NCBI GenBank assembly: GCA_964390265.1
Contig: CAYMHI010000001.1
Coordinates: forward strand, 8,345-72,344
DNA length: 64,000 bases
Source of the DNA: an uncultured Candidatus Saccharibacteria bacterium
GTDB taxonomy: Bacteria > Patescibacteriota > Saccharimonadia > CAILAD01 > BJGX01
Direction of reading: 5' to 3'
The translations under genes were made by a program, and so were the position numbers. Under the pieces are notes generated by a model, which saw only the letters and a program-made list of their open reading frames with translations, searched no databases and was not told where the DNA came from. The stretch's first letter is position 1. Each line of letters starts with the position of its first letter. Below, in pieces: positions 5,146-41,119 of the stretch.

Positions 5146-5251
5146 TTGGTTTGGTAGGTTGCTAGTAAAAATAATGATAGACAACAGTTAAATGCGCTTA
5201 TGATATAATCATTAGCATATATAACAACTACTAATAGGTACCAAAATAATT

Positions 5252-6574
5252 ATGAACGAAACAAGTGAAGAAAAAGTAGAAAAAGTAGCAGCAACCCCAG
5301 AGCTGAACGCTGCCGAAAAAGAAGTTGTAAAGTTTCTAGATGCCAGAATAGACGCAGAGCCAGAGAAAATGCGCAAATTAATGACCGAGAATTTTCAGGC
5401 TAACTATGATTTTTCAGTTTTAGACCCTCAAAAGCCTCAAAAAACTCAGCCGGTTTCATTTAGAATTATTAGAACTAGTAAAGAGGCCGGTAGTTTTTCG
5501 GTCACTGCTGAGATATTAAATGAAAATCAAAAGAGTCATAAACAAAAAACCATTAGCAAGATATATGATCTTACGAAAGACGCGGACTCCAAACAGCTCT
5601 TAATTAACTCCGAGAAAAACCTCAAATCAGATGTACCGTTTTATAAAAAACCTGTTTTCTGGATAGCCACAGTTATGGGATTGGCTGCTATTGCCGGGCT
5701 AGTATTTTGGGCTATAACCAGTCAAAAAACTACTCAAAATCAACAGTCTATTAAGGCCAACTGGCACCAAGTAGTAGATGGTGCAAAAGGGGTTGATGAT
5801 GCCGCGGCCAACGCTACTAAAGACCAGGCTGGTTATGACAATTACACCAAAAAGCTTAGCGACTACAAAAGCCTGGTTGGCGATGTTAAGTTTAGGGCCG
5901 ATCAACTCAAGCCTACTAGCGCCGACAAAGAAGACATTGCCAATTACAAAAATGCGCTTGTTAACTTAAATGATTATATATCGGAGGCGTCTAATCAAAG
6001 TAAGAATGTTGCTAGCCTTACTACTGCCGATTCATCTAAGCTAGATGATCTAGCTAATACGGCTGAGGCCGCTACCAATAAATTTCAAGATGGCGCTAAA
6101 TATCTAAGCGACAAAATGCCCACAGATATTTTTAACATTGGTGATGTACTGGCAAAGCAAAAAGATAAGCTCGATCAAGATAAACAGAAGGTGCAAGAAG
6201 CCCAAAACGCCGCCGCCGATGTGGTCGCCAAAGATGCTGCCAACAAAACCACAGTTACGAACAATATAACAACTTTTGAGCAAGGCTACATAGCCGGCAA
6301 TGAATCTGTAATGCGCCCAGTTATGACAGCTGGATTCCAAGGAGAATATAACTTCAACCAATTAACTCCCGAGCAACGTCAATATCAATACCCTAGCAGC
6401 TTTAGAATAATTAATGTTACTAAACAAGCCGATGGAACATACAAAGCTCAAGTAAATGTATTGTATAAATACACTGACAACCCCAACCAATATACCCAGG
6501 GTTATGAATACAGCGTAATTGGTCAAAATAATAAGTGGCTAATTAATAACGAAAAAACTGTTAGCGAATTTTAA
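5252..6574 (+). CDS. Hypothetical membrane-anchored protein
   Basis: Long ORF with one central TM helix and coiled-coil and low-complexity regions. No recognisable motif. Confidence 0.5.
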   Translation: MNETSEEKVEKVAATPELNAAEKEVVKFLDARIDAEPEKMRKLMTENFQANYDFSVLDPQKPQKTQPVSFRIIRTSKEAGSFSVTAEILNENQKSHKQKTISKIYDLTKDADSKQLLINSEKNLKSDVPFYKKPVFWIATVMGLAAIAGLVFWAITSQKTTQNQQSIKANWHQVVDGAKGVDDAAANATKDQAGYDNYTKKLSDYKSLVGDVKFRADQLKPTSADKEDIANYKNALVNLNDYISEASNQSKNVASLTTADSSKLDDLANTAEAATNKFQDGAKYLSDKMPTDIFNIGDVLAKQKDKLDQDKQKVQEAQNAAADVVAKDAANKTTVTNNITTFEQGYIAGNESVMRPVMTAGFQGEYNFNQLTPEQRQYQYPSSFRIINVTKQADGTYKAQVNVLYKYTDNPNQYTQGYEYSVIGQNNKWLINNEKTVSEF

Positions 6575-7255: not shown

Positions 7256-7333
7256 TGGGGTGAGTGATGGGACTTGAACCCACGGCCTTCTGGACCACAA
7301 CCAGACGCTCTAACCAACTGAGCTACACCCACC
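7256..7333 (-). tRNA. tRNA-His (GTG), with encoded G-1 and CCA
   Basis: Cloverleaf read on the minus strand. Anticodon loop TTGTGGT. An extra 5' G is typical of tRNA-His. Confidence 0.85.
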
Positions 7334-7503
7334 TCGTCGAAAGTGTGCTAACACTATCGACAATAGAATATCTATTCGCCTACAGTTAACACACAACTTT
7401 CTCCTCTCGAATCACGAAACAACCAAGTGTTTATTTCATGATTCGGTTTAGAAAAAGATCAGATCTATACTTTTAGTTGGCGTTGCTATGCCTCAGCGTT
7501 ATA

Positions 7504-7580
7504 TGGTGCCCCCGGCAGGATTCGAACCTACGACCCTCGGTTTAGAAAACCGATGCTCTATCCAGCTGAGCTACGGGGGC
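7504..7580 (-). tRNA. tRNA-Arg (TCT)
   Basis: Minus strand sequence GCCCCCGTAGCTCAGCTGGATAGAGCATCGGTTTTCTAAACCGA...CGGGGGCACCA. Anticodon UCU. Confidence 0.85.
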
Positions 7581-7780
7581 GCGTCTTCGTCGGACAACCG
7601 TAGTGACTTACATACCTATTTTCGAAGATACAATTTTACTTATTCATGATTGTAAAATAACTGTCCTGAACTTATTGTAACAATAAAGTAGTGTGCAGGG
7701 TATAAATTTAACAATTGTGAATGGGCTGTCTTAACCGAATAAAATGTGCACATTTTATTCGAGGAGGAAAAGTATTGTAG

Positions 7781-7836
7781 TTAACAAACAAATAAGCAGA
7801 ACCCCAAAGTTGAAACTCTGCTTATTTGTTTGTATT
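7781..7836. repeat. Perfect hairpin with a 16-bp stem
   Basis: aacaaacaaataagcag / ctgcttatttgtttgt with an 18-nt loop, followed by a T-rich tract on the plus strand. Confidence 0.5.
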
Positions 7837-7890
7837 TATACAATACTTTGACGATGGGGCGGTGTTCTACGCTAAAGCTACGATACAACT

Positions 7891-7950
7891 TCCAGATTAA
7901 ACTTCACTCATGCATTCTTAATTTGAATAATTAAGCGTAGCGTGAGTGAA
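7891..7950. terminator. Strong hairpin with a stem of about 16 bp, immediately 3' of tRNA-Gly on the minus strand
   Basis: ttaaacttcactcatgc ... gcgtgagtgaagtttaa inverted repeat. Confidence 0.5.
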
Positions 7951-7956
7951 GTTTAA

Positions 7957-8031
7957 TGGAGCGGGTAGCGGGAATCAAACCCGCATCACCTGCTTGGAAG
8001 GCAGGAGTAATAATCATTATACGATACCCGC
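7957..8031 (-). tRNA. tRNA-Gly (TCC)
   Basis: Minus strand sequence GCGGGTATCG...CCTGCCTTCCAAGCAGG...CCCGCTCCA. Anticodon UCC. Confidence 0.85.
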
Positions 8032-8278
8032 ATATCTATAAAGTGCAATCGATTTGAAAGAACATAGCTTATTATACAAGATTTGTATATGCAGCGCTAT
8101 CTTGCAGACAATGTATATTACTCCAAATGTTAATATATTACAAGACAATAAAGTAACTAGCGCAACTCTAAATTAGAATAAAAGTAAATATTATATTCAA
8201 AACCGTTTATACTTGCTTTGGTAGTTGTTTGGGTGTTTAATAGTAGTTAAGAAATATATTTTAAAAAGGAGAATTAAA

Positions 8279-8674
8279 ATGATAAACGGAAAATTAAAAA
8301 AGCTAGCCGTAGTAGGTGGAGCAGCAGTATCAGCCTTGGTACCTACTCTTGCTCGTGCAGCTGACTACAGCTCAGACTACACCACTACAACAACCACTAC
8401 AGATGGCGCTGCCGCTGCAGGTATCGTAGGTGTGTCGCTACTATTTATGTTCTTGTGGTTTGCATTTGCAATATTTGCACTTGTGTACTGGATACTAATG
8501 CTAATTGACGTAATTAAACGTACCAATTGGGAAAACGAAAGCGACAAAACTCTATGGTTGCTAGTTGTAATATTGCTAGGCATACTAGGTGCATTGGTTT
8601 ACCGATTTGTAGTTGTTTCAAAACTAGGCAAAGCTAGCGCACAAAAAACTTCTACTCCAGCTGCTAAAAAATAA
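8279..8674 (+). CDS. Small secreted/membrane protein with a PLD-nuclease N-terminal-like (PLDc_N) membrane domain
   Basis: AAAGGAGA RBS. Signal peptide, a Thr run, then the WILMLIDVIKRTNWE..DKTLWLLVVILLGILGALVY motif. Confidence 0.55.
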   Translation: MINGKLKKLAVVGGAAVSALVPTLARAADYSSDYTTTTTTTDGAAAAGIVGVSLLFMFLWFAFAIFALVYWILMLIDVIKRTNWENESDKTLWLLVVILLGILGALVYRFVVVSKLGKASAQKTSTPAAKK

Positions 8675-8705
8675 ATAAATAAGTAAGTAAGTAAGTAACT
8701 TGTTT

Positions 8706-8740
8706 AAGAAGAGCCCTACACACTAAGGGCTCTTTTTTTA
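8706..8740 (+). terminator. Rho-independent terminator
   Basis: gagccctacacactaagggctc followed by a T8 run. Confidence 0.8.
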
Positions 8741-8787
8741 TAGCTATAATTATGCTAGTATAAACAGGTTAAATTTAGTAAAATAAT

Positions 8788-8864
8788 GCGCCCTTAGCTC
8801 AGCTGGATAGAGCGTCTGGCTTCGGACCAGAAGGCCGGGGGTTCGAATCCCTCAGGGCGCACCA
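8788..8864 (+). tRNA. tRNA-Arg (TCG)
   Basis: GCGCCCTTAGCTCAGCTGGATAGAGCGTCTGGCTTCGGACCAGA...GGGCGCACCA. Anticodon UCG. Confidence 0.85.
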
Positions 8865-8917
8865 TATAATTGAGTCTTGGCTAAAAGCCAATGACACAAT
8901 TATAAAGTATGATTTGA

Positions 8918-8998
8918 TGAGAGACCCAGGGTTCGGTGCAGTAAAGCGCGCAGTGTCAAAACAAATTAATTTGGTTTTGACCAAGCACTTTACCTTAA
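8918..8998 (+). ncRNA. Conserved element of about 80 nt, copy A. Candidate structured RNA or miniature inserted element.
   Basis: It is paralogous to 10735-10815. It shares the gatga.aga...ggttcggtg...gcgcag...CAAAAC-hairpin-GTTTTG...agcac pattern. Confidence 0.35.
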
Positions 8999-9012
8999 GA
9001 GGCGTAGCCGCT

Positions 9013-9030
9013 ATCCCTCAGGGCGCACCA
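9013..9030 (+). repeat. 18-nt direct repeat of the tRNA-Arg(TCG) 3' end (atccctcagggcgcacca). It looks like an att-like target duplication.
   Basis: Exact copy of positions 8847-8864, located 148 bp downstream. Confidence 0.7.
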
Positions 9031-9212
9031 CGTTATATTATGTTAGACGATATATTCTAGATGTTAGAATAAAATTAAAACTAAATTAATTAATCTTCTA
9101 GCAAATTGAATAAGCTTGCTTGTTCAATTGAAGAGGAGAATGACTTGCGAACGGTGAAAGTAATTATTTACAATAATTTCTGCAACAATCAGTAATCGTT
9201 CGACGACGACGA

Positions 9213-9288
9213 GGGTCTGTAGCTCAATTGGCAGAGCAGTTGCCTCTTAAGCAATTGGTTGTGGGTTCGAGTCCCACCGGACCCACCA
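9213..9288 (+). tRNA. tRNA-Lys (CTT)
   Basis: GGGTCTGTAGCTCAATTGGCAGAGCAGTTGCCTCTTAAGCAAT...GGACCCACCA. Anticodon CUU. Confidence 0.8.
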
Positions 9289-9374
9289 AGAAAGTATCTC
9301 AGCGAATGCTGGGATTTTTTCTTGGTAAAACATTAATTTAAAAAAAGCCTACCAAATAGGTAGGCAGAGATGAA

Positions 9375-10421
9375 CTATAAGTCGCCGGTACGACTAAAAA
9401 AGTGTTTCCATCTTGAGTCTGGAATAGGAGTAACGCTTGGGGAGTGCAAGAGGTTATGGCCCTCCAGAAGATACTCGATTATTGCCATGAGTATTGGCAC
9501 GCTATAGCCAGACTGTGCAAAGTGCTTAGCTCGCCTGTCATTGTCTATCTCTGGCATTAGATCATTACTTCGAGGTAATGGGTGCATAAGTATTGCATTG
9601 GGGCTCAACATTCGCATCACACTCTCATCGATGAAATAAGCAGACCCACCAGCTCCCACCCAGTAGAATACATCAGTGTCTAGAACCATCGAGTCGAGAT
9701 TGGTCGTTTCTTTGAATTCAATATCACTCAAATACAAATTCTCTCGCAACTCATCATCTATACGTGCACTTTCAAGTGATACAAATATGAAGCTGATATT
9801 TTCGAAGAGACACAATGCTAGAGCAAGGTTTCGCGCAGTTATATTGCGACGAAGATCGCCACCAATCACCACGCGCAAATTCTGTAGTCTACCCACTTCT
9901 CGATAGATAGTATAGAGATCTACTAGCGTTTGCAATGGGTCATCTGCTATATTGATCATTGCGGCACTACTATGGTGAGCCGAGAGCTCTAACTCTTTAC
10001 TTGGCGGCTGATTGACCGCAATAATGTGAGGCTTGTACTCACTCAGTGACTTTAGTAAATCAGATAAACTTTCATCTCCAGCGCTATCCACATCTATAAT
10101 ACTTATTCCCATTCTTTTGGCAGCGGTAAAGAGAGATGTTTGTGATCGAGGAGACGGGCAGTCTAGCAACGTGTAGAGTAAGTAGTCTCTATAAAGACTG
10201 GCACTGACTTGAGGGTTTGGTACGCGAAGTCCATAACCCAACTGCTGTACGTATATATCTACAGCGGCAAAAAGATCTAACAAGAATTGTTTGCTCAGCT
10301 GAGAGGTGCTTAGTATGTGACGTAGTTTGGTTGATTTCTTTTGCAAAGGAACAAACCTTTCAATATGTTTGGTCGAAAGAAGTTCGTTTGATATAGTAGG
10401 CCAACAGGTAGCAAAAGTCAA
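9375..10421 (-). CDS. Aspartate/ornithine carbamoyltransferase-like protein with a degenerate N-terminal carbamoyl-phosphate motif
   Basis: The C-terminal MHPLPRSNDLMPEIDND...F.QSG motif is a near-perfect match to the ATCase HPLPRVDEI...F.Q..G motif. The N-terminal STRTR motif is replaced by SPRSQT, and HPTQ is not recognisable. Confidence 0.6.
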   Translation of the reverse strand: MTFATCWPTISNELLSTKHIERFVPLQKKSTKLRHILSTSQLSKQFLLDLFAAVDIYVQQLGYGLRVPNPQVSASLYRDYLLYTLLDCPSPRSQTSLFTAAKRMGISIIDVDSAGDESLSDLLKSLSEYKPHIIAVNQPPSKELELSAHHSSAAMINIADDPLQTLVDLYTIYREVGRLQNLRVVIGGDLRRNITARNLALALCLFENISFIFVSLESARIDDELRENLYLSDIEFKETTNLDSMVLDTDVFYWVGAGGSAYFIDESVMRMLSPNAILMHPLPRSNDLMPEIDNDRRAKHFAQSGYSVPILMAIIEYLLEGHNLLHSPSVTPIPDSRWKHFFSRTGDL

Positions 10422-10616
10422 TGTGCAGGTTGAAAAATAACCAGTTTATTGGTATGGTTAGTAGCGTGATATAAGATTATTCTTATTTCTTTTCCCATCT
10501 ACAGTTCGTGAAACAATAGAATAGTTGTTTAGCGAACTGAGAGGAGAAATAATGCGAAAGTTATAGAATTAAATGTAATAATATTTAATTTGCCAATTGA
10601 AGCATTATTTGGACGA

Positions 10617-10693
10617 CGGGGTGTGGCGCAGTTGGCTAGCGCGCTTGGTTTGGGACCAAGAGGTCGAAGGTTCGAGTCCTTTCACCCCGACCA
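10617..10693 (+). tRNA. tRNA-Pro (TGG)
   Basis: CGGGGTGTGGCGCAGTTGGCTAGCGCGCTTGGTTTGGGACCAAG...CACCCCGACCA. Anticodon UGG. Confidence 0.85.
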
Positions 10694-19310: not shown

Positions 19311-19317
19311 GGCATTG

Positions 19318-35531: not shown

Positions 35532-37064
35532 ATGAGCATAGATGCATCGAAATTCAAAAAAACTAAAATAATTGCCACCATTGGCCCTGCCAGCGAAGAC
35601 AAGGTGGAGCAGCTTTTACAAGCGGGTGTAAACGGAGTAAGACTAAATTTTAGCCACAATACCCACGCTTGGCATAAATCGGTACTTGTTAATGCACGAA
35701 AAGCGGCCAAAAAGCTTGACCGTTCAGTAGCCGTTATCCAAGATCTACAGGGCCCCAAAATCCGCCTTGGCATATTACCACAGGGCGGTGTTGAGCTTAA
35801 GGCTGGCCAAAAACTCACCTTTTGCTTTAACAACAAATGTGAAGACGGTCATTTGCCAATTCAGTTTGATTTTTCGCATATCATCAAAAAAGGCCAAAGA
35901 ATATTTTTACGTGACGGTACGGTGGAGACCCAGATACTCGATATTAGAGACAAACTGGTAGAAGTAGAGGTAAAAAACTCTGGTAAGGTATCTAGCAACC
36001 ACGGTGTAAACTTGCCCGATACCGTTTTTGATTCAAAAACTATCCTCACCCCCAAAGACAAAAAAGATCTAGAGTTTGCCTACACCAACGATGTAGACTA
36101 CGTGGCACTTAGTTTTGTTCAAACCGCTCAAGATATACTATATTTAAAAGAACTGCTTAAAAAAAATGGCAGCCCAGCCCGGATCATTGCCAAAATAGAG
36201 ACCAAAGTTGCTACTCAAAATTTAGACGAAATAATTGCTGCGGCCGATGTAGTTATGATTGCTCGCGGCGACTTGGCTATAGAAACTAGCAATGAAGATG
36301 TGCCACTCATTGGTCGCGAAATTATCCAGCGCTCTAGGGCCTATAAAAAACCAGTAATTATGGCTACACAAATGTTAGAGAGTATGATTGCTAGTCCTCA
36401 GCCCACTCGGGCCGAAGTAAATGATATTGCCAGTGCCGTAAGTTTGGGAGTGAGCTGTGTAATGCTCAGCGGTGAAACTGCCGCAGGCCAGTACCCTTTG
36501 CAGACAGTTCAACTCATGAAGCGCGTAATTCTAAAAAGTGAAGGTTATTACTCTAGAAACAGATTAGAAATAGATGTTGTTCCAGATGTAGGCGGTGAGT
36601 CGGTGCAGATGCCGGTTGAGTACGAACAGCGCGTAGGAAAAGTTAATAGATTTATTACTGCATCACGTAAGCTACTTAAAAGTGTAAATAATGCCGGCAA
36701 ACTTGCTACAAATGACGCCCAAACCAGCGTAAGCCTTGCGGCAATAACCCTGGCCGAACAAGTTGGCGCCAAGATTATCTTGGCCGAAACACTTACAGGC
36801 TCAACAGCTTTATCAATTGCAGCCTTACGTCCGCCCATGCCGATGATTATTGCCTCACCATCAGAAAAGGTATGCAATCAAATGGCGTTGGTTTGGGGAG
36901 GTAAACCCTATTTGGTACCCAAAAAGCATCATATTAGTGGGGGTGTGATTAAAAAGCTTGTAAACAAAAAAAACTTGCAAACGGGTGACTGGGTAGTGTT
37001 GGCTTTTGGTACTCACGCCAGTGTAGTTGGCGGAACCGACACAGTTAGATTGATAGAAATTTAA
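35532..37064 (+). CDS. pyk: Pyruvate kinase
   Basis: KIIATIGPAS, the MIARGDLA motif and a C-terminal regulatory domain. Confidence 0.9.
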   Translation: MSIDASKFKKTKIIATIGPASEDKVEQLLQAGVNGVRLNFSHNTHAWHKSVLVNARKAAKKLDRSVAVIQDLQGPKIRLGILPQGGVELKAGQKLTFCFNNKCEDGHLPIQFDFSHIIKKGQRIFLRDGTVETQILDIRDKLVEVEVKNSGKVSSNHGVNLPDTVFDSKTILTPKDKKDLEFAYTNDVDYVALSFVQTAQDILYLKELLKKNGSPARIIAKIETKVATQNLDEIIAAADVVMIARGDLAIETSNEDVPLIGREIIQRSRAYKKPVIMATQMLESMIASPQPTRAEVNDIASAVSLGVSCVMLSGETAAGQYPLQTVQLMKRVILKSEGYYSRNRLEIDVVPDVGGESVQMPVEYEQRVGKVNRFITASRKLLKSVNNAGKLATNDAQTSVSLAAITLAEQVGAKIILAETLTGSTALSIAALRPPMPMIIASPSEKVCNQMALVWGGKPYLVPKKHHISGGVIKKLVNKKNLQTGDWVVLAFGTHASVVGGTDTVRLIEI

Positions 37065-37106
37065 ATAGACTCACTGCAGACAAGCAAGATTAAGTCGAGT
37101 ATAATA

Positions 37107-37889
37107 ATGCTTATGAATATTCCTAAAAAGTTAATTGTTGGCAACTGGAAAATGAACACTACTATCGCTGAAGGTTCGGTGCTTTTTAACAATTTGCGAA
37201 AGGATATTGGTGACTTGGCAGATTGTGATATTGTATTGTGCCCACCGGCAACTCACTTATTTTCATTACATAGAGAGTTGATATCAAATAAAACCAAAAC
37301 TAGTTTTAAACTAGGCGTACAAAATATTAGTGAGCACGAAATGGGCCCTTATACAGGCGAGATATCGGCGAGTATGGTTAAGGAGTTGGTAGATTACGTA
37401 ATAGTAGGTCATTCTGAACGCCGAAAATATTTCAACGAGACTGATAAAACCGACAGTCAAAAACTAGGTATTGCTATGCGGCATGGCTTGCGGCCAATTT
37501 TATGCGTGGGCGAAACTAAGCAAGAACGAGGTGATGGCCAAGCCAAGCAGGCTGTACTCGATCAACTCAATACTGCATTACGCGGTGTAACAGAAAAAGA
37601 ACTCAAGGATTTGGCTATAGCTTATGAGCCGGTTTGGGCAATCGGCACCGGCAATTTTGCCAAACCAGCGGTAGTAGAAGAGATGATAATGTTAGTACGT
37701 AACACGTTGGCTCAGACCTACGGACGTATAGCTAGTACCCATGTGCGGGTGCTTTATGGAGGCAGTGTCTCAGCTCAAAACACCAAAGCTTATTTGAACT
37801 TGCAGGGTGTAGATGGCTTATTTGTAGGCGGAGCCAGCCTAAACCACAATCAATTTAGCGCAATTGTAAAAGCTGCAACATCGGTCTAA
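37107..37889 (+). CDS. tpiA: Triosephosphate isomerase
   Basis: VGNWKMN, VGHSERR, AYEPVWAIGTG and YGGS motifs. Confidence 0.9.
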   Translation: MLMNIPKKLIVGNWKMNTTIAEGSVLFNNLRKDIGDLADCDIVLCPPATHLFSLHRELISNKTKTSFKLGVQNISEHEMGPYTGEISASMVKELVDYVIVGHSERRKYFNETDKTDSQKLGIAMRHGLRPILCVGETKQERGDGQAKQAVLDQLNTALRGVTEKELKDLAIAYEPVWAIGTGNFAKPAVVEEMIMLVRNTLAQTYGRIASTHVRVLYGGSVSAQNTKAYLNLQGVDGLFVGGASLNHNQFSAIVKAATSV

Positions 37890-37953
37890 TACTCTAGCAA
37901 TTTAAACCTACACGAGCTATAATAATCTCTATTAATTTAACAAGAAAGAAAAT

Positions 37954-38481
37954 ATGTCTCTACTAGATATTCCTTATGGCGAAAATGCGCCAAAAATTGT
38001 CAATACTGTAATAGAAAACCCCAAAGGTAGTCGGCTCAAGATAGAGTTTGAGCGCGAGCTGGGTAATTTTGTACTCGACAGAGTGCACCAAACTCACTTA
38101 GGTAGCCCGAGCGACTATGGTTTTATACCTTCTACTTTAGACGAAGATGGCGATGCGCTCGATATGCTACTTATTAGTGATGACCCTATGCCGATGGGAT
38201 TAATTGTGCCGACTCGCGTAATTGGCGTAATGTACATGGTAGATAGTGGCGAAGTTGATAACAAACTTATTGGTGTACCTAGCGATGATAAGCACTATGA
38301 TGATATAAAATCTTTAGACGACATTGCTGAACACTGGAAACACGCCGTACGCCATTATTTTGAACACTACAAAGACTTAAAGGGTGATGTAGTAGAGATT
38401 AAGGGTTTTGCTGGCTACGATGAAGCTAAGGTTATTTTTGAAGAGTGCGTAGAACGCTACAACCAAGAGTTTAAAAAATAA
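37954..38481 (+). CDS. ppa: Inorganic pyrophosphatase (family I)
   Basis: DGDALD, typical length and Asp-rich motifs. Confidence 0.85.
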   Translation: MSLLDIPYGENAPKIVNTVIENPKGSRLKIEFERELGNFVLDRVHQTHLGSPSDYGFIPSTLDEDGDALDMLLISDDPMPMGLIVPTRVIGVMYMVDSGEVDNKLIGVPSDDKHYDDIKSLDDIAEHWKHAVRHYFEHYKDLKGDVVEIKGFAGYDEAKVIFEECVERYNQEFKK

Positions 38482-38507
38482 CCCTTCATTGTAGAAGAGT
38501 TAAATAA

Positions 38508-38969
38508 CTACTCTTGTGGTCTAACGGCAAGGAGAATATCGTAATTGCCATTTACCAGACTGGCATTGTGTGTTACGGCCTGCACTTGAGCGTAGGCTCC
38601 AGTAGTCAGGCCATCTTGGTCGCGCAGTGCCCGTGAGTGTGTCTGTCCTCGCCTGAGCCTACTCAGTCTTAAGCGGCGCTCACTGCCGTTGTGGGCTTGC
38701 ATGAAGTGAATAAGTAGTCTGTGTTCGGCAACAGCTAGCGAAACATGAGCAAATAGAGTTAACTGCCAGTGCTCTACTGATGGATCGAATGGGCAAACGT
38801 ATTGCACAACCGGCCAGGGGCAGGTGATGCGTTCCTCGTCTCTGACTTGGTAGGTCAAGGCTTTCTCCTTTGGCGTAGTGATTAGGTGCTGCGCTATATA
38901 GTACCATTTATTAGCACTATTTACAATTATTTTGCTGCGCCTATCTGTAGTACAATAAGCGTATGACAC
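38508..38969 (-). CDS. Uncertain ORF in an anomalously GC-rich segment (about 55 percent). It is either a foreign small gene or non-coding.
   Basis: 153-aa ORF whose start would overlap the divergent pcrA start by 7 nt. Composition is atypical for the window. Confidence 0.25.
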   Translation of the reverse strand: MSYAYCTTDRRSKIIVNSANKWYYIAQHLITTPKEKALTYQVRDEERITCPWPVVQYVCPFDPSVEHWQLTLFAHVSLAVAEHRLLIHFMQAHNGSERRLRLSRLRRGQTHSRALRDQDGLTTGAYAQVQAVTHNASLVNGNYDILLAVRPQE

Positions 38970-41119
38970 AAGTTTTAGATAGTTTAAACGAAGAGCAGCG
39001 CGAGGCGGTATTAGCTACCGAGGGGCCAGTCTTAATGCTAGCAGGTGCTGGTAGTGGAAAAACTAAAACCCTCACCCATCGTCTGGCGTATTTAGTACAA
39101 GAAAAAAAGGTCGACCCAGCAAATATCTTGGCGGTAACTTTTACCAACAAAGCCGCCGGCGAGATGCGCCGTAGAGTAGCAAGAATATTAAAGTTCGATG
39201 AAGACAATACCCAGTATATGCCATTCTTAGGTACCTTTCACTCAATAGCAAATAAAATTTTACGACGCGAGGCTGCGCAGATTGGTTACAGTAGCAATTT
39301 TATTATTTACGATTCAACCGATAGTCATGCACTTATCAAAAAGATTATCAAAGACCTTAAGCTTGATGAAAAACAAATTACCCCCAATGGCGTGGCCAAT
39401 GTAATATCGAGCGCCAAAAACGAACTCATTGGCCCGGGTGAATACAAACGCTTTGCGACTGGACGACTCCAAGAGGTAGCTGCCGATATATACCCTCGCT
39501 ACCAGCTCGAGCTACAAAAGGCCGAGGCTATGGATTTTGATGATCTAATTATGAAATTAACGATAATGCTCGAGGAGCAAAAAGAAATTAGAGACAAATA
39601 TCAGCATCAGTTTCAATACATAATGGTAGACGAGTACCAAGACACAAACCATGCTCAATACAAACTTATTCAAATACTTGGTTCACAACATCAAAATGTC
39701 TGTGTAGTAGGCGATGACTGGCAAAGCATTTACTCATGGCGGGGCGCTAATTACGAAAATATATTAAACTTTGAAAAAGATTATCCCGAGGCCAAAATAG
39801 TTAAACTTGAGCGTAATTACCGCAGTACCCAGACCATTCTAGATGCTGCCGGAGCAGTGATAAGTAAAAACTCGGCCCGCTCAGACAAAAAGCTTTGGAC
39901 CGACGCCACACAGGGTGAAAAAATTCAAGCTGTGTCGGTGCGAGATGAGCTAGAAGAAGGGCGCTATATTGTCCATACTATTCAAGAGGTAATTAAACTC
40001 AACCCACGCCTAAGCTTGCACGACTTTGCTGTACTTTACCGCACCAATGCCCAGTCGCGCAGCTTAGAAGAATCATTTCTGCGTTATGGTCTTGCCTATC
40101 AAATAATTGGTGGGGTAAGGTTTTATGAACGTAAAGAAATTAAAGATACCTTGGCCTATTTGCGCTTTATATTTCAACCCAATGACCAAGTTAGCCTATA
40201 CAGAATTATCAATCTGCCGCCGCGCGGCTTGGGTGAAAAAAGTTTACAAACCTTCTTTGACTACTCAGCCAAATTTGAGCTGCCCATACTCGAGGCTATG
40301 GCGCAAGCCAACAAGATAGAAGGCCTAAGTGCCAAGGCAACATCTAGCCTGGCCCAGTTTGCTACCACTATAGTTGGCCTGCAAGACCAAATTGGTACTC
40401 TGGTAGTTAGCGAGTTTATAGAGGCCGTGCTAAAGCGCACTGGTTACCTAGAATATTTAGACGACGGTACTATTAGTGCTAGCGAGCGAGTAGGAAACGT
40501 TCGCGAGCTACTAAGTGTAGCAAAAGCCTATAACAATCTAAGCCTAGAAGAATTCTTAACAGAGATAAGCCTAATATCAGATCTTGATAGTCTGCGTGAT
40601 AGTAACGGCGCAGTTACGTTAATGACTCTGCACTCTGCAAAGGGGTTAGAGTTTGACACCGTCTTTATGGTTGGTTTAGAGGAAGGTATATTCCCACACA
40701 GCCGTACGTTTTTTGAACCCAGTGAACTTGAAGAAGAGCGGCGACTTTGTTACGTGGGTATGACGCGAGCCAAGCATAGATTATATATGCTAAGTGCTAA
40801 TGCCAGACTTTTGTACGGTACCACCCAGCATAATGTTCCCTCGCGGTTTTTATCTGAAATACCTGCCGATTTAATTAGCCACAGCGGAAAGATAGATACA
40901 CAATTTCATGGATCACAAAGTAGCGTAGATAACACCAGTGCTTTTGACGACGAGCCATTTGTTGAAATACCACAACTCAAGCCTGGCGATAAAGTTCACC
41001 ACGCAACTTTTGGCAACGGCTCGGTTATAAAAATTGATGAGCTTGAGGCTAGTATAAATTTTAAATCGGTAGGTCAAAAAACTCTCAATCTTAACTTTGC
41101 TAATGTGACCAAACTTTGA
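38963..41119 (+). CDS. pcrA: ATP-dependent DNA helicase PcrA/UvrD
   Basis: GAGSGKT Walker A, DEYQDTN, the UvrD-family motifs and the C-terminal Tudor-like tail. Confidence 0.9.
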   Translation: MTQVLDSLNEEQREAVLATEGPVLMLAGAGSGKTKTLTHRLAYLVQEKKVDPANILAVTFTNKAAGEMRRRVARILKFDEDNTQYMPFLGTFHSIANKILRREAAQIGYSSNFIIYDSTDSHALIKKIIKDLKLDEKQITPNGVANVISSAKNELIGPGEYKRFATGRLQEVAADIYPRYQLELQKAEAMDFDDLIMKLTIMLEEQKEIRDKYQHQFQYIMVDEYQDTNHAQYKLIQILGSQHQNVCVVGDDWQSIYSWRGANYENILNFEKDYPEAKIVKLERNYRSTQTILDAAGAVISKNSARSDKKLWTDATQGEKIQAVSVRDELEEGRYIVHTIQEVIKLNPRLSLHDFAVLYRTNAQSRSLEESFLRYGLAYQIIGGVRFYERKEIKDTLAYLRFIFQPNDQVSLYRIINLPPRGLGEKSLQTFFDYSAKFELPILEAMAQANKIEGLSAKATSSLAQFATTIVGLQDQIGTLVVSEFIEAVLKRTGYLEYLDDGTISASERVGNVRELLSVAKAYNNLSLEEFLTEISLISDLDSLRDSNGAVTLMTLHSAKGLEFDTVFMVGLEEGIFPHSRTFFEPSELEEERRLCYVGMTRAKHRLYMLSANARLLYGTTQHNVPSRFLSEIPADLISHSGKIDTQFHGSQSSVDNTSAFDDEPFVEIPQLKPGDKVHHATFGNGSVIKIDELEASINFKSVGQKTLNLNFANVTKL

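Follow-up and report, generated by a model that had tools for sequence, protein, structure and literature searches.

The DNA considered here is a 64-kb window of Saccharibacteria DNA, to which all coordinates refer; the closest matches to its ppa product (Ppa), at 90–93% identity, are metagenome-assembled genomes (MAGs) of the Saccharibacteria (TM7, Patescibacteria). On the plus strand, the local gene order is pyk, tpi, ppa (37954–38481), a 481-bp stretch (38482–38962), pcrA (38963–41119) and an rpf-like gene. A preliminary description had singled out a guanine-cytosine (GC)-rich segment between ppa and pcrA, and such a segment is indeed found in the 481-bp stretch. The segment is a stand-alone minus-strand gene (38858..38508), termed here the small gene, which specifies an orphan protein of 116 amino acids. 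Comparison with its orthologues indicates that this is very probably a real, expressed protein-coding gene, translated from the TTG at 38858.

The segment owes its GC-richness to a coding sequence of unusual composition. The preliminary figure of about 55% GC holds for the core, where the best 200-bp window (38576–38775) reaches 0.55, but not for the segment as a whole, which has 0.483 over 38490–38969; the gene itself (38508–38858) has 0.524, and the whole window 0.412. Among the 351-bp windows in the 64 kb, just 0.4% have a GC of at least 0.524. Both the GC of the small gene and its GC at third codon positions (GC3; 0.513 versus a mean of 0.373 ± 0.045) lie about three standard deviations above those of 47 large open reading frames (ORFs) of the window. 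Across codon positions 1, 2 and 3 the values are 0.64, 0.42 and 0.51, compared with window means of 0.51, 0.38 and 0.37, and the high value at position 1 (GC1) implies that amino-acid composition accounts for much of the excess, in particular 12 Arg and 10 Ala among the 116 residues. The remainder of the composition includes 14 Leu, 11 Val, 9 Gln, 7 His and 2 Cys, so that the earlier characterisation of the product as rich in Cys, His and Arg is borne out for Arg and His, but not for Cys. The GC excess is thus partly a matter of amino-acid composition and partly a truly high GC3. Orthologues of the type found in lineage L003, introduced below, have GC3 values of 0.35–0.45, nearer to those of their hosts.

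Taken mechanically, the longest frame of the segment is an ORF of 153 codons on the minus strand (38508..38969), which begins at a GTG at 38969 and, as had been described, runs 7 nt into the start region of pcrA, overlapping its ATG at 38963. It had also been called the only ORF present; the ORF exists, but two others accompany it, one of 75 codons in another minus-strand frame and one of 40 codons on the plus strand. In 5000 mononucleotide shuffles of a 541-nt stretch (the spacer with 60 nt of pcrA), frames of 153 or more open codons arose in 0.6% of cases and of 116 or more in 6%, which makes an open frame of the length of the 153-codon ORF uncommon, but not extraordinary.

The case for a gene is carried by its relatives. 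Eighty loci around ppa homologues were fetched, and tpi, ppa and pcrA were located in each. A full-length homologous frame is present at this locus in eight lineages (the window, L081, L003, L083, L087, L088, L090 and L093); the seven besides the window, all Saccharibacteria, carry the orthologue at the same place and divergent from pcrA. Protein identity to the window product is 28–38%, rising to 96% in the near-identical strain. L003, with a Ppa 92% identical to that of the window, has a spacer of comparable size, in which a minus-strand ORF specifies a 110-amino-acid product that matches the window protein over its full length (BLASTP, 33% identity, expectation (E) value 2e-24). At the nucleotide level, a blastn search of the spacer against the 80 related loci gave no match, and nhmmer found L003 alone, weakly (E 7e-7), which pointed to conservation of the protein rather than of the DNA. 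Protein searches extended the family to P0001 (96% identical, with the same synteny), P0003, P0004, P0005, P0006 and P0009, together with a distant 84-amino-acid member, P0008. All members except P0008 are encoded beside pcrA, on the strand opposite to it, and mostly in the ppa–pcrA interval; the L083 locus is an exception, in that one unrelated gene of 224 codons separates pcrA from the small gene.

The pattern of substitution is that of a coding sequence. Between the window and L081, the small gene differs at 15 nucleotides, distributed 4/0/11 over codon positions 1/2/3; these amount to 10 synonymous and 5 non-synonymous codon changes, with a Nei-Gojobori ratio of non-synonymous to synonymous substitution rates (dN/dS) of 0.14. 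The corresponding ratio between L003 and L088 is 0.16. In the remaining pairs dS is saturated, and the proportion of non-synonymous differences (pN, 0.21–0.49) is lower than that of synonymous differences (pS, 0.77–0.90). The small gene is under purifying selection, and because the ORF is kept in this way in orthologous spacers, it is a real small gene. This was the very observation, the same ORF under purifying selection in orthologous ppa–pcrA spacers, that the preliminary description had named as proof of a gene. The general marks of protein-coding sequence are found here together: an intact frame in diverged orthologues, a third-position bias, and a conserved start, Shine-Dalgarno sequence and terminator.

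These comparisons also fix the start codon. Every orthologous protein begins at an aligned M-[TSD]-[YH] position, where L003, L083, L088, L090 and L093 have an ATG. In L083, L088 and L090 an in-frame stop lies 6–21 codons upstream of this position with no usable alternative start, the sole upstream candidate in L083 being a GTG that directly precedes it, and a longer protein is therefore impossible there. The public gene call for P0001 is likewise 116 amino acids long. The 153-amino-acid reading from the GTG at 38969 was accordingly rejected, its upstream extension being neither conserved nor possible in those three orthologues; the 37 codons that it adds have no similarity to the region upstream in L003. 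The preliminary description had concluded that the ORF left no room for either promoter, a difficulty that arose from taking the first possible start codon. As the true start lies 37 codons further in, 104 bp separate the divergent starts (Table 1), and the problem of promoter space disappears. The apparent anomaly of a GC island with an ORF but no promoter space is in this way explained by the correct start, TTG 38858.

Table 1. The small gene and its predicted expression signals, in coordinates of the 64-kb window
Feature	Coordinates	Strand	Description
Small orphan protein coding sequence	38508..38858	-	TTG start 38858-38856, 116 codons, TAG stop 38510-38508
Shine-Dalgarno AAGGAG	38865..38870	-	6 nt upstream of TTG; read from sequence
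Putative promoter of small gene	38898..38926	-	-35 TTGTAA (38926-38921), 17-nt spacer, TG-extended -10 TGgTACTAT (38906-38898); read from sequence
Intrinsic-terminator-like hairpin (38502-38479) and T6 (38478-38473)	38473..38502	-	Directly after stop; terminator scan
Divergent intergenic region, small gene/pcrA	38859..38962	.	104 bp, GC 0.39, outside GC-rich core
-10-like TACAAT	38951..38956	+	6 nt upstream of pcrA ATG (38963), no Shine-Dalgarno; read from sequence

The signals around the frame recur in its relatives. A purine-rich box (GGAG, GGAGG, GGAAGG or GGGG) stands 2–11 nt upstream of the start in every orthologue, and a TGnTAnnnT element lies at a similar upstream distance in L003, L083, L087 and L088; a strict consensus promoter scan did not pick up the putative promoter of the small gene. 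Seven orthologous loci have a hairpin immediately after the stop codon, and in six of these a T-run comes next, uninterrupted in four; among the imperfect cases, L088 has TTATTT and L093 is without a clean run. On the other side, the arrangement TACAAT-N6-ATG at the start of pcrA is kept in L003, L088 and L090, with N7 in L087. The position of TACAAT 6 nt before the pcrA ATG, with no Shine-Dalgarno sequence, suggests that pcrA may be translated from a leaderless mRNA; a literature search on leaderless transcripts in Saccharibacteria returned nothing relevant. The promoter, the leaderless pcrA mRNA and the terminator are all elements predicted from the sequence. At the other end of the gene, the terminator T-run (in the region 38473–38481) is antisense to the end of ppa (its final two Lys codons and stop codon), and the convergent transcripts of the small gene and ppa therefore probably overlap, by about 9 nt.

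Two readings would deprive the segment of a gene product altogether. A structured non-coding RNA gene, such as RNase P RNA, transfer-messenger RNA (tmRNA), signal recognition particle (SRP) RNA, 6S RNA or a new large RNA, with the ORF incidental, would account for a GC above that of the surroundings, as is typical of structural RNAs in AT-rich genomes, and for a terminator-like hairpin at the end. Known RNAs of this kind, including the large ornate RNAs, likewise form islands of a few hundred bases between housekeeping genes of AT-rich genomes and end in a terminator. The small gene, by contrast, matches no covariance model, shows neither excess folding energy nor a conserved structure, and has a codon-periodic pattern of substitution. 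Over the whole window, the 4227 models of Rfam 15 at their gathering thresholds match eight tRNAs and nothing else, and Rfam and ARAGORN together find no rRNA, RNase P RNA, tmRNA or SRP RNA in it, which agrees with the earlier search by eye for RNase P, tmRNA and SRP RNA motifs. Relaxing the threshold to E ≤ 10 on 38350–39100 (751 nt) yields a single 16-bit match to a snoRNA model (E 0.93), taken as chance; the Rfam search to which the preliminary description had looked for a known RNA thus matched none in the segment. Compared with shuffled sequences, single-sequence folding gives minimum free energy z-scores of -1.0 for the minus strand and -0.6 for the plus strand, within the range of the shuffles and without excess stability, and RNAalifold, applied to eight orthologous loci, proposes only 12 pairs over 449 columns at -2.6 kcal/mol, which is no consensus structure. 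With substitutions that are 3-periodic and conservation that lies in amino acids and not in nucleotides, the structured RNA that had been entertained is exceedingly improbable. The other reading, a spurious frame in GC-rich, stop-poor sequence, would make the segment a non-functional spacer or a decayed remnant. It draws on the 6% of shuffles that contain at least 116 open codons, on the lack of any database family, and on a spacer whose length differs widely between relatives (42 bp to 2.1 kb). The frame, however, is unbroken and homologous from end to end in eight lineages with saturated synonymous sites; this, the dN/dS of 0.14–0.16, the 12 residues invariant in the family and the conserved start, Shine-Dalgarno sequence and terminator leave the reading with next to no credibility. 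What stands is the coding gene, and with it one part of the earlier suggestion of a horizontally acquired small gene; the acquisition itself may have taken place, the atypical GC and patchy occurrence being set against the same position in eight lineages and the lack of a mobile element.

Separate from these tests, the tRNA genes of the window are unevenly placed: six lie within 7256–10693, on both strands (His, Arg-TCT, Gly, Arg-TCG, Lys and Pro), and single genes are found at 19317 (Trp) and 34946 (Glu).

The predicted product has 116 amino acids, contains the peptide ITCPWPVVQYVCPFDPSVEHWQLTLFAHVSLAVAEHR, and is without a signal peptide or hydrophobic segment, consistent with a soluble protein. 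As had been stated, it has no recognisable fold: there was no match to a Pfam family, to the sequence of a Protein Data Bank (PDB) entry or to a solved fold. Searches of Pfam, NCBIfam, PADLOC, PHROGs and PDB sequences, with single sequences and with the family alignment, gave no significant match, and none of nine members matches an anti-phage defence or phage family in PADLOC or PHROGs at E ≤ 1. The sole profile matches, to PF23666 (Rcc01698_C), PF24843 (DUF7720) and PF20772 (TACO1_YebC_N), each occurred in one or two members and were treated as chance, since, at E values of 0.02–0.05, they fall far short of the curated cut-offs (for PF23666, 14 bits where 27 are required) and are inconsistent between members. 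An exhaustive HMMER search of 1.84 billion representatives returned five matches, one of them spurious (P0007, rejected as a low-complexity repeat protein), and the family amounts to eight clusters among 5.8 billion proteins. Metagenome contigs of the Joint Genome Institute contributed nothing beyond two 10-residue chance matches in an unrelated ORF (L096 and L097), and a scan of viral contigs found no relatives. The family is so far known from Saccharibacteria MAGs and from unbinned contigs with the same Saccharibacteria gene order alone.

Twelve residues are invariant in nine sequences (P14, W15, P16, Y20, C22, P23, H30, L33, L35, V39, H51 and H56), and these define the family signature PWP-x3-Y-x-CP-x6-H...H-x4-H. 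The N-terminal core is 41–55% identical to that of the window protein, while the C-terminal part is only 11–22% identical. AlphaFold, run with P0004 first among nine sequences, gave a mean predicted local distance difference test score (pLDDT) of 77.7 and a predicted template modelling score (pTM) of 0.67. This model has strands at 17–21 and 32–36, helices at 41–55, 60–74 and 83–92, and a strand at 106–109; in it, the β-hairpin is bracketed by C22 and H30, H51 is placed close to where the first helix ends, and H56 comes shortly after that helix. The arrangement of C22, H30, H51 and H56 resembles the logic of a β-β-α zinc module, and a metal-binding core of this kind is suggested by the invariant PWP, Y and CP together with the three invariant His. 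The classical small Cys/His modules (β-β-α C2H2 fingers and zinc ribbons) share with this prediction a β-hairpin followed by a helix, and Cys and His at the ends of the hairpin and helix.

Judged from its sequence signals, the small gene would be transcribed from its own predicted TG-extended -10 promoter, which sits in the 104-bp region back-to-back with the probably leaderless pcrA promoter; translation would start from the TTG behind a strong Shine-Dalgarno sequence, and transcription would end at the hairpin and T-run that abut the end of ppa. In the mechanism proposed for the protein, the N-terminal residues, about 58 in number, would form a β-hairpin and helix holding a metal ion, most likely zinc, with invariant C22, H30, H51 and H56 as putative ligands, joined in most members by further Cys at positions 11 and 13; recognition of a particular partner would fall to the C-terminal half, which is helical and evolves fast. 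This division into an N-terminal Cys1His3 core and a partner-binding C-terminal half is offered tentatively, and several observations count against it. P0008 lacks C13, which every other member has, and C11 occurs in proteins of the L003 and L090/L093 types (P0002–P0006 and P0009) but is missing from the window protein, so that Cys1His3 alone is universal. The spacing C13-x8-C22-x7-H30-x20-H51-x4-H56 fits no classical zinc-finger signature, in which the protein departs from the known modules; the metal site is itself a prediction, and the zinc-finger models of Pfam and NCBIfam give no match at E ≤ 1–10. The window protein, modelled with six sequences, gave a poor and unusable AlphaFold result (pLDDT 42.6). 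The window-type protein is also basic (isoelectric point (pI) 7.9–9.2), unlike the rest of the family, which is mostly acidic (pI 4.7–6.0).

As the family is mostly acidic, its partner is likelier to be a protein than DNA, and, since its members have neither a signal peptide nor a hydrophobic segment, a cytoplasmic protein that binds another protein is favoured over a DNA-binding regulator. The sole hint as to the partner is the conserved divergent position beside pcrA; a functional tie to PcrA, which this might reflect, is considered unlikely. A more elaborate proposal would make the family an undescribed Cys1His3 metal-binding fold, specific to one clade of Saccharibacteria and anchored at pcrA, with a C-terminal half that adapts to a changing partner (PcrA, or a host- or phage-derived protein) and a GC-rich allele that is a recent import; as a whole, this is speculative and doubtful.

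The ppa–pcrA junction, judged from the spacers of L001–L026, is a plasticity zone. The distance between the two genes is 42–51 bp in L005, L016 and L017, and reaches 2.1 kb in L004 and L007. The cargo of the slot varies by lineage, and includes genes for P-loop kinase-like, methyltransferase-like, GNAT-like, dUTPase-like and membrane proteins, as well as guaA, NUDIX and HAD genes in L093. Where present, the small gene lies at the pcrA-proximal edge. Its occurrence is patchy, being present in L003, L083, L087 and L088 and absent from L001, L002 and L004–L006, all of which have a Ppa 90–93% identical to that of the window. The window-type protein is 30–33% identical to the L003, L083, L087 and L088 copies by tblastn, or 35–38% in the alignment, while in the same genomes the flanking Ppa is 92–93% identical and full-length PcrA 75–81%. 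By local similarity, the outside sequence closest to it is that of P0008, which comes from a genome with 52% GC and matches 39% of the query at 41% identity. At a shorter evolutionary distance, the window and L081, a 99.2%-identical strain, differ at 46 positions, of which 45 fall within 37025–38838 (tpi, ppa and the small gene); ppa diverges by 3.6% and the small gene by 4.3%, with no difference in the 2157-bp pcrA and one in the rpf-like gene. This cluster marks a tract of homologous recombination that stops at the 5′ end of the small gene. No integrase or transposase ORFs, tRNAs or flanking direct repeats were found around 38380–39060. The divergence of the window-type protein has two possible explanations: it may be a fast-evolving accessory protein, or a foreign allele may have been imported by recombination.

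Under the second of these, the gene is real, and the copy in the window was recombined into the slot from a GC-richer Saccharibacteria lineage. Such an import would explain the GC3 of the window copy, the low identity of its product next to well-conserved flanking proteins, the affinity with P0008, and the presence or absence of the gene among equally close relatives, and the L081 comparison indicates that recombination is active at this very place. The gene nonetheless occupies the same chromosomal position and orientation in all lineages; no donor sequence was found, and integrase, tRNA and flanking repeats are likewise absent. The same pattern could arise if an accessory protein diverged quickly, and GC1, at 0.64, is high as well. 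An imported allele is therefore a possible origin for the window copy, though not a likely one. A different proposal concerns function, namely that the product is a DNA-binding transcription factor acting on its own promoter and on that of the divergent pcrA. The divergent orientation of the two genes, kept in seven lineages, the two promoters placed back-to-back within 104 bp, and an Arg-rich stretch in the window copy (RRLRLSRLRRGQTHSRALR) are all compatible with such a regulator. However, no Pfam model of a helix-turn-helix or another DNA-binding domain matches, only the window type has the Arg-rich stretch, in a family that is acidic overall, and the intergenic regions contain no evident conserved palindrome; moreover, L005, L016 and L017 have pcrA with a 42–51 bp spacer and no such gene. 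A regulatory role of this kind is improbable, and a soluble protein that would bind another protein is the preferred reading.

Placed among known systems, the small gene resembles the lineage-restricted small hypothetical proteins of the candidate phyla radiation (CPR)/Patescibacteria, which are short, lack a Pfam domain, belong to a narrow clade, evolve fast and sit in a variable slot; it is already among the predicted genes of public assemblies, as with the 116-amino-acid P0001. It differs from them in that its reality is shown by synteny in eight lineages, by dN/dS and by conserved signals, and in that an invariant signature is defined. The small gene is an ordinary, unannotated, lineage-restricted orphan, possibly with a new small metal-binding fold, and nothing about it points to an unusual mechanism. 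With a validated gene model and signature, this unnamed family can be annotated consistently in Saccharibacteria MAGs, and accessory genes in the plasticity zones of these reduced genomes are good candidates for functions in the epibiotic lifestyle. The value of the small gene would rise only if the predicted metal site or the link to the PcrA helicase proved true.

The slot itself holds further elements. An unannotated protein of 224–253 amino acids, starting MPEPTGPT... in L001 and L004, recurs in it; the 224-amino-acid gene that lies between pcrA and the small gene in L083 (L083:4150–4824) is assumed to be homologous to those of the L001 and L004 proteins, and has no Pfam match on record. 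A conserved non-coding block of about 220 nt is present in the ppa–pcrA slot of three Saccharibacteria MAGs (L007:5772–5986, L009:1454–1669 and L015:~5165–5399), and was looked for in the window, where it is absent. In L007, the 5′ half of this block matches helices 42–44 of 23S rRNA (positions 1071–1169 of the large-subunit (LSU) model of Rfam; 69 bits, E 1e-18), the L10/L11-binding GTPase-associated centre. The 3′ half forms a hairpin whose loop has the universal sequence of the 530 loop of 16S rRNA, GCCAGCAGCCGCGGTAA, which is exact in L009 and has one mismatch in L007 and L015. The block could be an rRNA-mimic or decoy RNA, and it is judged more unusual than the small gene itself.

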